A DNA stretch of 64,000 nt, from positions 64,001 through 128,000 of IMG/VR virus record IMGVR_UViG_3300042514_001858; one strand, 5' to 3'. Below the pieces are notes generated by a model that saw nothing but the letters and a program-made list of their open reading frames with translations, did no database searches and was not told where the DNA came from. Within the stretch, counting starts at the first letter, position 1; each line of letters opens with the position of its first letter. This document shows positions 4,126 through 15,525 of the stretch, piece by piece. The position numbers and the translations under genes were made by a program. Source of the stretch: a virus.

Positions 4126-4146
4126 GCCCCGATTATACTCTAGTTT

Positions 4147-4500
4147 TTAATTATTACCAATAGTATAATTCGACAATATCTTATCACCATTTTTCATCAA
4201 ATACATCATGATCTTCTCCAGATTACCTTTCAGCTTAATTAGATCACCATTTTTTTGATATTTTTCCATTTTAATGATATTTTCCAATTTGGAAGACGCT
4301 TGAAATGCACTGTCTTGGATATTAGCTAAATATTGAGGCAGTCCTTCAAATTCATATGGGAGAGTGTCTGGTGATTGCGCCATTTTCTCATCCGTTTTAT
4401 ATTTTCTCATCTGTTCAGAAGGATTTAGAGGATTTTTGAAATCAAGATCAATAGCACCAGAGGCAATTGCAGTAGAATAAGGAGAATTTGAAGCAGCCAT
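4147..4500 (-). CDS. Hypothetical late protein
   Basis: TAAATA at 4514-4509 upstream. Confidence 0.6.
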   Translation of the reverse strand: MAASNSPYSTAIASGAIDLDFKNPLNPSEQMRKYKTDEKMAQSPDTLPYEFEGLPQYLANIQDSAFQASSKLENIIKMEKYQKNGDLIKLKGNLEKIMMYLMKNGDKILSNYTIGNN

Positions 4501-11179: not shown

Positions 11180-11460
11180 TTCTTTCTCTTTTTCTGCTCT
11201 GAATTAATGTATTTCGTGATGAACTTACTACGTGAAATAGTAGGATCATAATCTAGAAACACTTTAACAAGTTCTTGGTCAGAGTCAAGAGATAAAATGG
11301 TTTTCAAAATTGTTTTTAGCCTTTCCTCTTGGAGAGTAGTCACGAAAACATTCTGAATGGATAATTTTTTTCCTTTAAGATGATTTATAAAGGAACAATA
11401 GCATAGAAAGAGGTGATTTGTTTCCTCTTCCACAATTTCTGATGATGGATCAAAGCTCAT
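11176..11460 (-). CDS. Hypothetical protein
   Basis: Coupled overlaps with both neighbours. Confidence 0.6.
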   Translation of the reverse strand: MSFDPSSEIVEEETNHLFLCYCSFINHLKGKKLSIQNVFVTTLQEERLKTILKTILSLDSDQELVKVFLDYDPTISRSKFITKYINSEQKKRKK

Positions 11461-12320
11461 AATTCTGTAAGTGTTTCGCTGAATTTCAAAAATTCTTTGG
11501 TGATTTTACCTCCTGATGCCCATTCGCCGCCACCACCGTCACCACCGTCACACAGATTAGCAGCCATTTTAGCAATGTCAACCTCCGATCCTTTACATTT
11601 TCTAAAAGAAACGAATTTTGTATCAGGGTTCATTACAATTACAGCGTCTCCTTTATAATTTTCCATAATGGAATGGCTCAATTCATTCACGGAGAACTTA
11701 GAAATCGTGGAAATGACCTTAAATCCTTCCCATTCTCCTGTGAATAGTTGAATTTGCTCCAATTCTTTTTCTAATTCCTTGAAAAAACCTTCAGCAAGCT
11801 TAACTTCTGTGGTAGTGAACCCGTCAAACCCGTTCCAGAAGCGATTTACAAAATTAATAAAGCGATTTCCACCAGATTTACGATAAAGAGCATTGAGATA
11901 CTTGGTTTCTTCGTGTTTTAGATCATATGAATTGTAATCATCGACGTATAGGAAGAATTTTTTCAAATCTTTCGTAAATTCCACCTTTTCTTTGAATTTT
12001 TTATACAACATCTTGGTGCAAGATGAACATTCTTCCTGAATCATGGTTGAATCCCATGTTTTGAAGTCTTCGGGACGGTCTGAAACGAACACCACACGAT
12101 GATCGTCAATCTTTTTGATAAGATTTTGATCTAGAACCATGCCGACTACGAAGATTTTATCATAATCTTCTGCATTTTCTTTAGCCCATGGTAGATATTG
12201 TTCTTCAAACTTACCAAAAAAACAATGACGATACTCAAAATTCTTAAATAAATTACCTAAAAGAACTGTAGAACCAATACCATCCAAATCTGAGTTGACC
12301 CAAGCAAAGATACGTTGCAT
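11457..12320 (-). CDS. Degenerate DHH/DHHA1-family protein
   Basis: SDLDG motif I, VDDYNSY, VSFR...GGG; DHH replaced by DRP and GGGH by GGGE; start MQRIFAW at 12320 behind promoter. Confidence 0.7.
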   Translation of the reverse strand: MQRIFAWVNSDLDGIGSTVLLGNLFKNFEYRHCFFGKFEEQYLPWAKENAEDYDKIFVVGMVLDQNLIKKIDDHRVVFVSDRPEDFKTWDSTMIQEECSSCTKMLYKKFKEKVEFTKDLKKFFLYVDDYNSYDLKHEETKYLNALYRKSGGNRFINFVNRFWNGFDGFTTTEVKLAEGFFKELEKELEQIQLFTGEWEGFKVISTISKFSVNELSHSIMENYKGDAVIVMNPDTKFVSFRKCKGSEVDIAKMAANLCDGGDGGGGEWASGGKITKEFLKFSETLTEL

Positions 12321-12324
12321 GTCA

Positions 12325-12352
12325 TAATTACTCGGATTTAAAGAATTGTCAA
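12325..12352 (-). promoter_or_regulatory. Promoter TTGACA-N16-TAATTA for DHH gene
   Basis: Direct inspection; conserved in duplicate copy at 13341-13368. Confidence 0.65.
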
Positions 12353-12360
12353 TCATAATA

Positions 12361-12449
12361 ACACAACATGTCGCTCCATCCAACGGCTCAAAGTCGTCTG
12401 TTTCGTATTCAGAGTCTTACGTTCGCCGTGGATGAGCTAGACGTTCGGC
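12361..12449 (+). mobile_element. attC: Integron attC site 1 (89 bp)
   Basis: R'' ACACAAC, 5 nt, L'' GCTCCATC, CAACGGC...GCCGTG, L' GATGAGC, 5 nt, R' GTTCGGC; unpaired C and A give bottom-strand extrahelical G and T. Confidence 0.9.
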
Positions 12450-12997
12450 AAAATAATCCCCCACCCCCCTCCTCCCGACGACAAAGAGAAACAACAAACA
12501 TTATGACAGATAATACAAAGAAAGGATATTTTGATGAAAATCTCACTTTTGATGGGATACAGAAGACAATCGATGATTTAGTAACAAATTACCCAAATCA
12601 TATCGGCGTTATTACCGCAATTGGTAAGTTGGGTAGCTTAATGTCAATTTTACACGATGACAACAAAGAACAAAACCGACTAACAAAAATCCAGAATAGG
12701 CGAGTGGAGATTTTATCTTGGGTTGTCGGTGTTTGCACCTTGATTACGACATTTGCAACCATCATGAGTATCTGTAAGTGAATTACGGGCAAACCAATCC
12801 ATAATCTCTTTAACTTTTCTATCCTGTTCACGATTGAATGATTCTTGATATTCTTTTTCAGTGTCTCGTTTGTCAGCATTTGTAATAAATCTCCACATCC
12901 TAGAAAAAAATGAAGAAGCCGAACAAGACGCTCCATCCAACGGCGAAAACGTCTTTGATTGTTTCGGACTCTGTTTGCGCCGTGGATGAGCTAGACG
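12444..12997 (+). mobile_element. Integron gene cassette (554 bp)
   Basis: Begins TTCGGC; its own attC starts GCCGAAC, complementary to GTTCGGC; ends at G|TT. Confidence 0.85.
12503..12781 (+). CDS. Cassette-borne small membrane protein (92 aa)
   Basis: Canonical cassette orientation; coiled segment then C-terminal TM ILSWVVGVCTLITTFATIMSI. Confidence 0.65.
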   Translation: MTDNTKKGYFDENLTFDGIQKTIDDLVTNYPNHIGVITAIGKLGSLMSILHDDNKEQNRLTKIQNRRVEILSWVVGVCTLITTFATIMSICK

Positions 12998-13027
12998 TTG
13001 TGTATTATTTTTATTTTTATTTTTCAT
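12713..13027 (-). CDS. ORF starting outside the cassette and reading through attC2 into it
   Basis: Promoter TTGACT-N16-TACAAT 9 nt upstream; RLAHPRR...PLDGASCS is attC-encoded. Confidence 0.5.
   Translation of the reverse strand: MKNKNKNNTQRLAHPRRKQSPKQSKTFSPLDGASCSASSFFSRMWRFITNADKRDTEKEYQESFNREQDRKVKEIMDWFARNSLTDTHDGCKCRNQGANTDNPR
12918..13003 (+). mobile_element. attC: Integron attC site 2 (86 bp)
   Basis: R'' GCCGAAC-AAGAC-L'' GCTCCATC-CAACGGCG...CGCCGTG-L' GATGAGC-TAGAC-R' GTTGTGT. Confidence 0.9.
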
Positions 13028-13036
13028 AAGGTCTGT

Positions 13037-13064
13037 ATTGTATACTAGTTTTTAAGAAAGTCAA
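13037..13064 (-). promoter_or_regulatory. Sigma70-type promoter pointing into the attC array
   Basis: TTGACT-N16-TACAAT. Confidence 0.7.
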
Positions 13065-13381
13065 CCATTTGATAATTTTTGCAATAAGTCCAATTCATCA
13101 TTGTCCATAATTTCTTCCTCATCAATCTTTTTGATAAGATTTTGATCTAGAACCATGCCGACGATAAAGATTTTATCATAATCCTCTGCGTTTTCTTTAG
13201 CCCATGGTAGATATTGCTCTTCAAACTTACCAAAAAAACAATGACGATACTCAAAATTTTTAAATATGTTCCCCAAAAGAATTGTTGATCCAATTCCATC
13301 CAAATCGCTATTGACCCATGCAAAAATTCGCTGCATGTTATAATTACCAATTTCTATAAAATTGTCAATAGGTGATTCCAT
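13061..13381 (-). pseudogene. Chimeric remnant: DHH-gene 5' end fused to gp41 3' end
   Basis: 13122-13368 closely matches 12106-12352; 13104-13124 identical to 14252-14272; tail EEEIMDNDELDLLQKLS vs gp41 EEEIMDNNELSLLEKLS. Confidence 0.85.
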
Positions 13382-13411
13382 ATAAGAATCTTAGAATAGG
13401 ATTAAGAGAAA

Positions 13412-14203
13412 TCAAATAACTCTTGGTTCATTTTTAGATTTAATTACATAGCTACTCATAACCTTGTTATATAAATCAGGTTGAACTTTTTTCAACCTAT
13501 CAAAACCTATCATAGATTTATTATACATCAAATATGTTCTTATTTTTGAAAATGATTCTTTGCGTTCAACACATTCAGCATCGTAAATATATTTAATATT
13601 TCTCTCCAATCTTGTGAATCCTTTATCACCATCCTCATAACCAAAATTTAAATACCACATAATGTTATCAGGATTTTTTGGAGTTGCAGTGGTAAAAAAC
13701 CCAATTTTAAATTTGGTGTTTTCTTTTGGTTCTTGGACTCTGTTTTGTAGGCTATTAAATCCGCGTTGCCCCACTTGTGTCGAACTAGGATTATGTCCAA
13801 CCGAATATACGGAATATGCATATGCTGGATTGGATGAAAAATAGACTGAATTTCCTATAGCTTTGGAATCTTCACCCTTGGAAAAGGGGTCGGGATTTTT
13901 ATGTCCCCTATACACCAAAGAACCATCTTTAGGTAAAGAGTCGAACCCCTCTTTCAAATAAAATCCGTAATATTTCATCACCTGCTCCAGATATTCGTTT
14001 TCATCGTTACGAATATCTTGGGTAATACTTCCACTTCCCATAGTTTGTTTATACTGAACTGCATCATCACGATTTTTTTTATAAGATGCAACATCTTTAA
14101 TGGAAAAGCTATCATCTTTTCGATCAAACATAGTTCCAAAAGGTCTATTACCTTCCCTTTTTTTTGTGACAAATTCTTCAAAAAATATTTTAAACGATAC
14201 CAT
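13412..14203 (-). CDS. Late protein with ADP-ribosyltransferase-like motifs
   Basis: LVYRG, VYFSSNPAYA..Y, distal AECV; TAAATA-N5-ATG; MVSFKIFFEE N-terminus. Confidence 0.5.
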   Translation of the reverse strand: MVSFKIFFEEFVTKKREGNRPFGTMFDRKDDSFSIKDVASYKKNRDDAVQYKQTMGSGSITQDIRNDENEYLEQVMKYYGFYLKEGFDSLPKDGSLVYRGHKNPDPFSKGEDSKAIGNSVYFSSNPAYAYSVYSVGHNPSSTQVGQRGFNSLQNRVQEPKENTKFKIGFFTTATPKNPDNIMWYLNFGYEDGDKGFTRLERNIKYIYDAECVERKESFSKIRTYLMYNKSMIGFDRLKKVQPDLYNKVMSSYVIKSKNEPRVI

Positions 14204-14211
14204 TCCATTAT

Positions 14212-15525
14212 TTAATCACTCAACTTTTCAAGAAGGCTAAGTTCATTATTATCCATAATTTCTTCCTCATCATCTGCCTGATATATAGAAAGTGTGGAAT
14301 AATTAATTCTCATGGCTTGTGTCATTCCTCTCGGTCCGAACCTATTTTTCATCATTCCCAGACGAATTACTGCCATTTCTTGGTCTTCTTCGTTCTGGAA
14401 GATAGATACAATCACATCAGCAGTCATAACAATAGCCAAAGACTCAGCAACACCTGACATATCAGGGTTATTTTGTCCAACAGCAGATCTATTCAACTGA
14501 CAAGCTGAAATAATAGGGCATTTATAGACATAAGACAATGCTCTGACCTGTTCGCAGATGTTTTTACCCTTTTCATAGCTGTTACTACCAGCAGCAGTCA
14601 TCAAAGTAAGGTAATCAAGCACAATAGCATCAATTCTGATACCAGAATCTTTCATTTTCTTGATAAAAGCTCCCAATTGCTTAGGTGTAATCGTAGATGG
14701 GGGGAATTCTTTGATATAAATGCGCCCATCAGTGTTCTTATGCTCTTGTTCAAGGGCATGTCGAAGCGTTGGGACACAATTACGGAACTCCTTCATGGGA
14801 ATCTTCGTCACATTCGAAGCAATTCTCTTAGCATAGAGCGTTTCCGACATCTCCAGAGTCACAACAAGCACATGTTTACCTTGGGATGCCATGTTTGCCG
14901 CCACATTACCAAGGAAAATGCTCTTTCCAATGTTAGATTGACCCGCAAACACATACAATGCCTTACCAGCTTCTTGAAATCCACCGTCCAATGCCTCATC
15001 TAACCATGCCCATTTGGAAGAAATAGTGGTTTCATCACTCAAAATGTCATCAATGACCTTTTCAACATCACCATAAAGCTCAATTCCTTTATCAACATTG
15101 AGATTGATACCAGCAATCTTCTCAAATTTCTCCACGATCTTGGCGGTATCGGCTTCTCCTTCCGATATTTCTTCTGCTGACTCCAAAATGGAGTGATACA
15201 TGCCCCGTTCCTTGAGGAATCTTTCTGTATTCTCATACAATTCATCCTGATTGTGATTGGAATCGATCTCTTTGAATGATTCAATTAACTTTTTGAAGTT
15301 GGTTTTGAGTTCATCTGTCGTGAGATATGTCTTCACCTCTGTGAATGTGGGAAGAGATTGTCGTTTCTCGTAGAAATCTGCAACAATCTCAAAATATTTC
15401 GCAATATTTTTATCCGTGAAATACTTGGGTTGGACGTAATCAGCAATGGATGCCAGATAAGCACCATTCGTGATCGCGTTCTTCACAAGAACCTTTTCAA
15501 AATAATCAAAATCTATTTCAGACAT
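14212..15525 (-). CDS. gp41: Replicative DnaB-like helicase
   Basis: GQSNIGKS, TLEMSE, IKEFPP, LDYL, QLNR, KNRFG. Confidence 0.95.
   Translation of the reverse strand: MSEIDFDYFEKVLVKNAITNGAYLASIADYVQPKYFTDKNIAKYFEIVADFYEKRQSLPTFTEVKTYLTTDELKTNFKKLIESFKEIDSNHNQDELYENTERFLKERGMYHSILESAEEISEGEADTAKIVEKFEKIAGINLNVDKGIELYGDVEKVIDDILSDETTISSKWAWLDEALDGGFQEAGKALYVFAGQSNIGKSIFLGNVAANMASQGKHVLVVTLEMSETLYAKRIASNVTKIPMKEFRNCVPTLRHALEQEHKNTDGRIYIKEFPPSTITPKQLGAFIKKMKDSGIRIDAIVLDYLTLMTAAGSNSYEKGKNICEQVRALSYVYKCPIISACQLNRSAVGQNNPDMSGVAESLAIVMTADVIVSIFQNEEDQEMAVIRLGMMKNRFGPRGMTQAMRINYSTLSIYQADDEEEIMDNNELSLLEKLSD

Follow-up and report, generated by a model that had tools for sequence, protein, structure and literature searches.

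Integron attC sites in a T4-like phage and their putative translation from the bottom strand

In a 64,000-nucleotide (nt) stretch of viral DNA, referred to here as the window (bases 64001-128000 of the 154-kb IMG/VR virus record IMGVR_UViG_3300042514_001858, for which completeness is estimated at 75%), a gene cassette is enclosed by two integron attC sites, and an open reading frame (ORF) on the minus strand runs from phage sequence through one of these sites into the cassette. We consider it probable, although far from certain, that a phage promoter and an ATG express the bottom strand of the cassette as a leader fusion that is translated through the attC. Leader-fusion expression from the opposite strand had been proposed in an earlier reading of the nucleotide sequence by itself (the sequence-only reading), and the proposal is supported by the comparative evidence presented below, namely the recurrence of the arrangement at other phage loci, the higher frequency of reading through phage than through bacterial attCs (16/26 versus 11/109), the ratio of nonsynonymous to synonymous substitution rates (dN/dS) and the mutual compensation of ATG distances and attC lengths.

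In the mechanism that we favor, one cassette bracketed by two attCs (12361-13003) is lodged in a resident attC site situated between a DnaB-like helicase gene and a DHH-family phosphoesterase gene, and this array, which has no integrase of its own, would be served by the integron integrase of the host. The coding strand of the phage here runs along the bottom strand of the attCs. A promoter box would start a near-leaderless mRNA, ribosomes would initiate at the ATG at position 13027, and they would proceed through a 10-codon A-rich leader and through attC2, in a stop-free frame, into the minus-strand gene of the cassette. The product would be a small protein with the first approximately 40 residues derived from the resident leader and the recombination site. 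Since cassettes have a fixed orientation and the promoter and ATG are located at the core-site (R') end, it is the bottom strand of the neighboring cassette that would be expressed, in a mirror image of the arrangement of Pc and attI. Translation through the attC would in turn place a coding constraint on the phage attCs, which should lack stops and have lengths and ATG distances that keep the frame.

Integron attC sites and the origin of the cassette

The two sites are direct repeats with identical arms and different loops, and the bottom strand of both is on the minus strand of the window. The resident site, attC1 (12361-12449), adjoins the DHH gene and measures 81 nt from AAC to GTT (12365-12445), while attC2 (12918-13003, with 7-bp R boxes) measures 78 nt (12922-12999), a difference of 3 nt, as noted in the sequence-only reading. 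Exact copies of the 22-nt right arm occur exactly twice in the window, against 0 expected, and also only twice in the whole 154-kb record. When folded as DNA, the minus strand forms imperfect hairpins with a 5-nt unpaired spacer beside the AAC and GTT boxes and with two bulged, extrahelical bases (T and G) in the 3' arm of each. AAC and GTT, the ends of the core-site pattern RYYYAAC ... GTTRRRY, are invariant; bacterial copies of the repeat include the canonical pair GCCTAAC/GTTAGGC.

A search of one genome per prokaryote species returned at least 120 stretches with both arms. Among the matches listed, nearly all came from Verrucomicrobiota, including Akkermansiaceae, Luteolibacter, Terrimicrobiaceae and others, with several copies per genome, some of which were 450-860 bp apart. 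The R boxes of the bacterial copies vary, yet they are complementary within each site, and the next gene has its start codon on the opposite strand at a distance of 8-12 nt, an arrangement also found in integron arrays. An integron integrase with a score above the TIGR02249 cut-off was present in 3 of 5 genomes with hairpins, compared to 0 of 14 control genomes. The arrays adjoin divergently oriented integrase genes in the loci L209 and L333, and the array in L211/L114 adjoins an integrase-like gene that scored under the cut-off. The bottom strand of the bacterial arrays is the coding strand of the integrase.

A covariance model built solely from 70 bacterial (Verrucomicrobiota) copies, some of which are located beside integron integrases, matched both window sites on the minus strand, attC2 with 66.8 bits (E = 2.9e-19, 12915-13006) and attC1 with 60.2 bits (E = 4.7e-17, 12358-12452). 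Among 37 diverse copies, compensatory changes were observed at 13 of 13 pairs in the main stem and 93.9% of the cells pair, which is covariation far in excess of shuffled and slid controls in an alignment that was itself fitted to the covariance model. On the sequence evidence of the hits to a bacterial-only model, the covariation, the integrase neighbors and the complementarity of the R boxes, both window repeats are true attC sites of integrons and belong to a Verrucomicrobiota family, which bears out their earlier identification as an attC array. Several verrucomicrobial families share this attC type with unusually little variation, even in the loop, and its modal length is 81 nt. Such uniformity makes Verrucomicrobiota the likely host group of the uncultured T4-like phage lineage.

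A tyrosine recombinase (PF00589) gave no match in the phage record, as far as this is covered by a sequence that is 75% complete by estimate, and no integrase gene adjoins the array as it does in a complete integron. The array is thus of the integrase-less type referred to as a CALIN (cluster of attC sites lacking an integrase). In two additional IMG/VR contigs classed as viral (L047 and L051, 57-58 kb), the arrays consist of 4-5 attCs that are more GC-rich and vary in length. These contigs may be fragments of prophages or bacteria instead of T4-like phages, and they were left out of the phage attC counts.

The cassette (12444-12997, top strand on the plus strand) starts with the TT in the core site of attC1 and ends with the G in that of attC2. 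In minus-strand orientation, the boxes are ACACAAC...GTTCGGC in attC2 and GCCGAAC...GTTGTGT in attC1, and the R boxes are complementary crosswise between the two sites, at 7/7 positions twice (ACACAAC with GTTGTGT, GCCGAAC with GTTCGGC). In a related phage (L217), the same slot between the helicase and DHH genes holds four attCs and three cassettes with box complementarity in every cassette; the outermost boxes are likewise ACACAAC and GTTGTGT, and an attC1-type body is again found beside the DHH gene. The crosswise complementarity, taken together with the bacterial arrays, identifies the plus strand as the integron top strand. The crossover footprint indicates that the cassette was presumably put in by site-specific crossover. 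Homologous recombination alone, in the manner of the PeSL cassettes of T4-type phages, was also considered as the origin of the cassette and is disfavored by the crosswise complementarity of the R boxes, although transfer of the promoter-leader module from one locus to another may still occur in this way.

Three alleles of the slot were observed in relatives, in which the helicase gene is followed by the DHH gene directly, by a 263-amino acid (aa) ORF and the DHH gene, or by the promoter box, an attC, a cassette, another attC and the DHH gene. The cassette is missing from the DnaB-DHH alleles of relatives. The window slot is a hybrid of the last two alleles, which explains the chimeric ORF upstream of the array (13061-13381, minus strand), recognized from repeats D1 and D4 and from the alleles of relatives; it consists of an N-terminal DHH copy and a copy of the C-terminal tail of the helicase, and its end overlaps the promoter. 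The 263-aa ORF in the hybrid slot (13412-14203) has no Pfam or PHROG match. An empty resident site, with the leader and the attC1 body and no cassette, did not turn up in scans with a pattern for the leader/attC junction, and the reconstructed empty site discussed below thus stays hypothetical. The pattern matched 109 stretches in metagenomes, only 3 of which had the hairpin while the others were chance matches, and the 4 new matches in viral contigs were all due to chance.

The top strand of the cassette encodes P0003 (12503-12781, plus strand), a protein of 92 aa with a hydrophobic C-terminus and 5 homologues at 68-84% identity. A member of this family, P0008, is encoded in the first cassette beside a 412-aa integrase on a 122-kb bacterial contig. 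This bacterial cassette has the same convergent minus-strand gene, with spacing equal to that in the window, and its location beside a bacterial integrase indicates that the cassette is common to bacterial integrons and phages. The bacterial integron in L333 (3391-8512) contains a 412-aa integrase gene and at least 6 attCs, and the protein of its first cassette is identical to a P0003 homologue; two very short cassettes of this integron (about 130-140 nt between attCs) have ORFs on the bottom strand only. A common stretch of about 28 nt precedes the internal attCs of phage arrays (L217, 6548-6575 and 7262-7289; L050, minus strand, just upstream of position 709). On the top strand it resembles a TACAA-type -10 element followed by the ATG of the cassette gene after 7-8 nt, and it is possibly a cassette-borne leaderless promoter.

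Promoter box, start codon and reading frame through the attC

The sequence-only reading had proposed a phage promoter of the form TTGACT-N16-TACAAT. Both hexamers are present on the minus strand (13064-13037) before the ATG at 13027-13025, and the part of the proposal that stood is the downstream one. The -10 hexamer TACAAT (13042-13037) forms the end of a 20-nt box (13037-13056, 1 mismatch to the consensus), which has 2 matches in the window versus 0.03 expected and was found in 39 stretches of viral contigs. An ATG located 4-9 nt (mode 6) past TACAAT and opening an ORF of at least 50 aa was identified for 20 of 29 distinct box copies, as compared to 3.6% of random positions. The second box in the window (4132-4151, minus strand) has 3 mismatches and an ATG exactly 6 nt past the -10 element. 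Given this distribution, we regard the box as a motif that is specific to the phage group. The TTGACT hexamer (13059-13064), which is separated from TACAAT by the 16-nt spacer and falls within the 3' end of the chimeric ORF, is not conserved among the other box copies, and the conserved signal is the box rather than a -35 element of the TTGACA type.

Generic scans of the window yielded no excess of sigma-70 sites (14 versus 15.9 expected) and no excess of terminators. In the RNA fold, the putative mRNA begins with 35 A-rich nt that stay unpaired. Leaderless geometry, with an ATG about 6-9 nt after the -10 element and no Shine-Dalgarno sequence, is seen at the ATG at 13027, which is located 9 nt past TACAAT, and we infer that a near-leaderless mRNA starts at the box before this ATG.

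The ORF that begins here (12713-13027, minus strand) encodes P0002, a protein of 104 aa that is composed of the 10-codon leader, about 26 codons from the attC and a conserved domain encoded by the cassette. It passes attC2 without a stop and extends 69 codons beyond it, in agreement with the approximately 68 codons given earlier. The combination of the box, the ATG, a short leader rich in Lys and Asn and an attC recurs at several loci of related phages, and continues at each of these into different sequence. At each of the 11 ATG-proximal attCs, the frame stays open across the hairpin and for another 93-219 nt, leading into 10 different sequences in total, and the other two frames at these sites mostly stop within or just past the hairpin. 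By comparison, 9 of the 16 promoter-less attCs have an in-hairpin stop in the equivalent frame, attC1 included. The sequences downstream of the ATG-proximal sites are unrelated to one another.

To all sites we applied the same definition of through-reading, which is an ATG at most 45 nt upstream and an ORF that continues at least 60 nt past the site. Such ORFs were found at 16 of the 26 phage attCs and 11 of the 109 bacterial attCs (Fisher 1e-7). In the bacterial copies (n = 116), the same exit frame extends at least 90 nt past the site in 22 only, and the exit frame is not the longest frame more often than expected by chance. For the phage loci, the pairs of ATG distance and attC length are (28,78), (22,81), (19,81), (21,82), (19,87), (19,90) and (14,119), all of which lead into one exit frame. 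As to a constraint modulo 3 on the lengths of phage attCs relative to bacterial ones, which had been suggested as a check, the lengths (taken from the model hits) that differ from 81 nt are multiples of 3 in 12 of 17 phage attCs versus 1 of 15 bacterial attCs (p = 3e-4). Long-loop attCs of about 119-125 nt (L052, 1728-1860; L051, 11287-11419; L333, 5862-6000) contain an in-loop ATG in the common exit frame, so a bottom-strand gene can start within the attC of its own cassette.

The P0002 homologues P0012, P0013 and P0016-P0019 have the downstream domain in common behind other leaders and hairpins, and an attC-type N-terminal extension is present in all further homologues of this domain. The hairpin of the window also precedes the unrelated proteins P0014 and P0015, and the P0014 family is conserved as well, with a homologue in L049 behind a different hairpin.

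We estimated dN/dS from an alignment of the window, two phage-like loci and the bacterial integron copy. The 140-nt segment between attC2 and the end of P0003 (12782-12921, minus strand), which is coding in the leader frame, gave dN/dS values of 0.12-0.37 in this frame with zero stops, whereas the other frames had values of about 1 or more and/or stops. The mirror frame on the top strand yielded values of 0.24-0.31, but contained 1-3 stops. Indels in the segment are 3 and 12 nt in size and thereby in frame, and in the alignment only 4 changes, all synonymous, separate the window from the bacterial copy in the six codons for WRFITN. The body of P0003 is stop-free in its own frame with dN/dS values of 0.08-0.13; one bottom-strand frame in this region gave values of 0.18-0.31 as a mirror of P0003, but with 2-6 stops. 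In this alignment, both cassette genes are shown to be under purifying selection.

The genes for P0002 and P0003 are convergent, with an overlap of 69 nt. Many phage cassettes (L334, 3900-6470; L217, 5950-8100; L055) contain a convergent gene pair with 3' ends that overlap by about 20-70 nt, the pair being made up of a top-strand gene and a leader-fed bottom-strand gene. Two other candidates for coding features were rejected. A 112-aa ORF from an ATG in the 3' arm of attC2 (12598-12936, minus strand) was rejected as coding, since in the spacer both of the bottom-strand frames other than the leader frame contain stops and have dN/dS >1. The exit peptide (Cys-Ser-Ala-Ser) was considered as a lipoprotein or signal peptide; it has no preceding hydrophobic core and represents the translated conserved 3' arm.

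Alternative explanations

Several observations weigh against the favored mechanism. The ATG at 13027 is located at 9 nt and not at the modal 6 nt, which implies a leader of 2-3 nt, and three of the through-reading ORFs use another exit frame. In L050, about 190 nt of the leader ORF coincide with a conserved gene on the top strand, and this leader ORF could be a shadow frame. The bacterial consensus attC is GC-rich, 81 nt long and already free of stops in 2 of 3 frames, so the preserved frame is partly an inherited feature, and since 81 nt is the bacterial consensus length, the 78/81 pair in the window alone proves nothing. The phage copies are related by descent, and the counts and p-values presented above thus overstate their independence. 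The bacterial integron copy of the cassette also has an open frame, so the minus-strand gene is not phage-specific. In the reconstructed empty site, the leader reads RLAHPRRT, followed by one TAA in the attC1 loop and then by DSEYETDDFEPLDGATCCVIMIDN in frame with the DHH start, just as in the sequence-only reading; this match in frame amounts to one 1-in-3 event. An internal ATG (12898, Met44) precedes the conserved domain in the window, and GTG is found there in some homologues. Finally, the attC-encoded peptide is not conserved as a protein, because compensatory changes in the stem rewrite its residues; it would represent a passenger linker and not a domain.

The alternative that survives best is based on Met44, and we regard it as rather improbable. 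In this case, the promoter would be real and the attC would be a structured 5' untranslated region, with the protein starting at the ATG at 12898 and the open frame upstream being incidental. An AGG precedes Met44, and several homologues have Val, possibly from GTG, at its position; the lack of conservation of the attC-encoded peptide is also in line with an internal start, as is the bacterial consensus attC, which by eye is open in the leader frame anyway. However, L332 has Ala at the position of Met44 while the following residues stay conserved, so the start of this homologue must be located upstream, in or before the attC, and both differences between the window and L332 upstream of Met44 are synonymous in the leader frame. 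An internal start would moreover leave unexplained that each of the 11 ATG-proximal attCs is open and continues in frame into a long ORF downstream, that ATG distances and attC lengths compensate each other, and that phage attC lengths off the consensus favor multiples of 3.

Somewhat less plausible still is the possibility that translation of the attC is selected for an effect on the RNA or DNA, such that ribosomes melt the hairpin and transcription reaches the DHH gene, avoiding termination, polarity or cleavage, with the product being irrelevant. The RNA hairpin is stable (about -30 kcal/mol for the region), attC hairpins have been reported as weak terminators or ribosome barriers (PMC8876359, PMC9892861), and in the reconstructed empty site the stop of the short leader ORF would fall in the loop of attC1, about 60 nt ahead of the start of the DHH gene. 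A role in melting is at odds with the protein-level selection on the segment past the attC, which belongs to a family that occurs behind different leaders, and with ORFs that extend 30-70 codons past the hairpin, beyond the needs of melting.

A mainly regulatory role, in which the minus-strand transcript would silence or tune P0003 through antisense pairing or colliding transcription, is very unlikely. The convergence of the P0002 and P0003 ORFs with their 69-nt overlap would suit such a role, and convergent overlapping pairs recur in the cassettes of L217, L334 and L055, but we identified no promoter for P0003 on the plus strand, this protein shows conservation of its own and is presumably needed, and the open frame, the frame compensation and the dN/dS signal would be left unexplained. 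The data can be accounted for without antisense silencing. A chance or shadow frame behind a fortuitous promoter-like site is strongly disfavored and hardly credible, since the absence of excess sigma-70 sites in the generic scan and the scarcity of stops in GC-rich attC arms, which would allow for it, are set against a specific recurrent motif with an adjoining ATG, the enrichment of through-reading over bacterial attCs and leader-frame selection where no plus-strand ORF exists.

Genomic setting, known systems and significance

The genes surrounding the array, including those for a gp32-type single-strand-binding protein, the DnaB-like helicase and other T4-like replication proteins, are all located on the minus strand. 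The gene that follows the array (11457-12356, minus strand) was assigned to the DHH-family phosphoesterases from a match to phrog_26954 (DHH phosphoesterase) and from a match to PF01368 with an E-value of 2e-4, which is below the cut-off; it has 41 related loci. Blastn searches with 11400-14300 gave no match to deposited phage records, a search of 12300-13120 against Rfam gave only noise, far under the gathering scores, and neither the two cassette proteins nor P0014 or P0015 had a match in Pfam or PHROGs. Just within the cassette, positions 12456-12475 between attC1 and the P0003 start form a C-rich tract, which reads as G-rich on the minus strand and is also present in L216.

Clusters of attCs without an integrase have been published for virulent phages (Qi et al. 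2023, PMC9892861). That study covers lytic phages, including a myovirus, for which the host is not known, and it showed the phage attCs to be substrates of a bacterial integron integrase. Its CALINs are similar to the window array in that attCs and cassettes are found without an integrase in lytic phages. In contrast to the present analysis, it describes no bottom-strand promoter or start, no ORFs translated through attCs and no coding constraint on attC lengths, and we additionally identified the attC family of the hosts (Verrucomicrobiota), along with a bacterial integron that contains an identical cassette.

The nearest functional analogues are ORF-11 and ORF-18 of attI1. In class 1 integrons, the ORF-11, ORF-17 and ORF-18 variants at attI1 are short ORFs with initiation signals of their own that span the crossover point, and ORFs of the ORF-11 type lend translation initiation to the adjacent cassette, mostly by coupling, with occasional N-terminal fusions (PMC8876359). 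The window leader likewise spans the crossover, which falls between AA and C in the bottom-strand R box. Whereas ORF-11 is located at attI on the top strand, downstream of Pc, the window leader occupies the opposite (R') end of the array, where it adjoins an attC and uses the bottom strand. It would work in the manner of ORF-11 but is not a member of that type. It would read the whole attC hairpin and yield true fusions.

In the PeSL cassettes of T4-type phages (PMC2839356, PMC4122927), modules of a promoter and a hairpin flank variable small genes in plastic regions. They are like the window module in being repeated promoter-hairpin units that accompany gene shuffling in T4-like genomes. The order in PeSL is terminator stem-loop, promoter, Shine-Dalgarno sequence and start codon, and the process is homologous recombination (PMC4122927). 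The order in the window differs from that of PeSL and consists of the box, the ATG and a hairpin inside the ORF, with no Shine-Dalgarno sequence. Unlike the PeSL stem-loop, the window hairpin is an attC shared with bacterial integrons, with site-specific crossover at the cassette ends.

Hairpin-forming repeats are also found within protein-coding genes in the case of the Rickettsia palindromic elements, which are located in frame and translated as tolerated hydrophilic inserts. These are selfish insertions scattered in conserved genes, whereas the window hairpin is a recombination site in a set position, preceded by a promoter and start codon dedicated to it. Full-text searches of the literature retrieved no description of a promoter or start codon reading the bottom strand of an attC, nor of translated attCs. 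While attC clusters in phages are already known, we found no publication on the reversed and translated use of attCs proposed here.

As a tentative extension, in which we have less confidence than in the fusion itself, the recurrence of the module suggests that T4-like phages of Verrucomicrobiota could keep a "reverse integron", that is, a docking-and-expression site that has spread to several loci in their genomes. Its resident parts would be the box, the leaderless ATG, the short A-rich leader and half an R box. The host integrase would insert cassettes into it in a fixed orientation, and the bottom strand would be made as an N-terminal fusion through the attC.

In the usual view, cassettes are expressed one way, from Pc at the attI end and on the top strand, and the attC is non-coding, structured DNA. 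If the mechanism proposed here is true, a virus exploits the fixed orientation of integron cassettes in reverse by providing the starts of transcription and translation at the end of the array opposite to the usual one, with translation of the recombination site itself. This would represent a mechanism by which lytic phages sample and express the cassette pools of their hosts, possibly including genes for defence or counter-defence. It would also explain the sequence constraints on phage attCs and tie a large group of uncultured phages to Verrucomicrobiota hosts.

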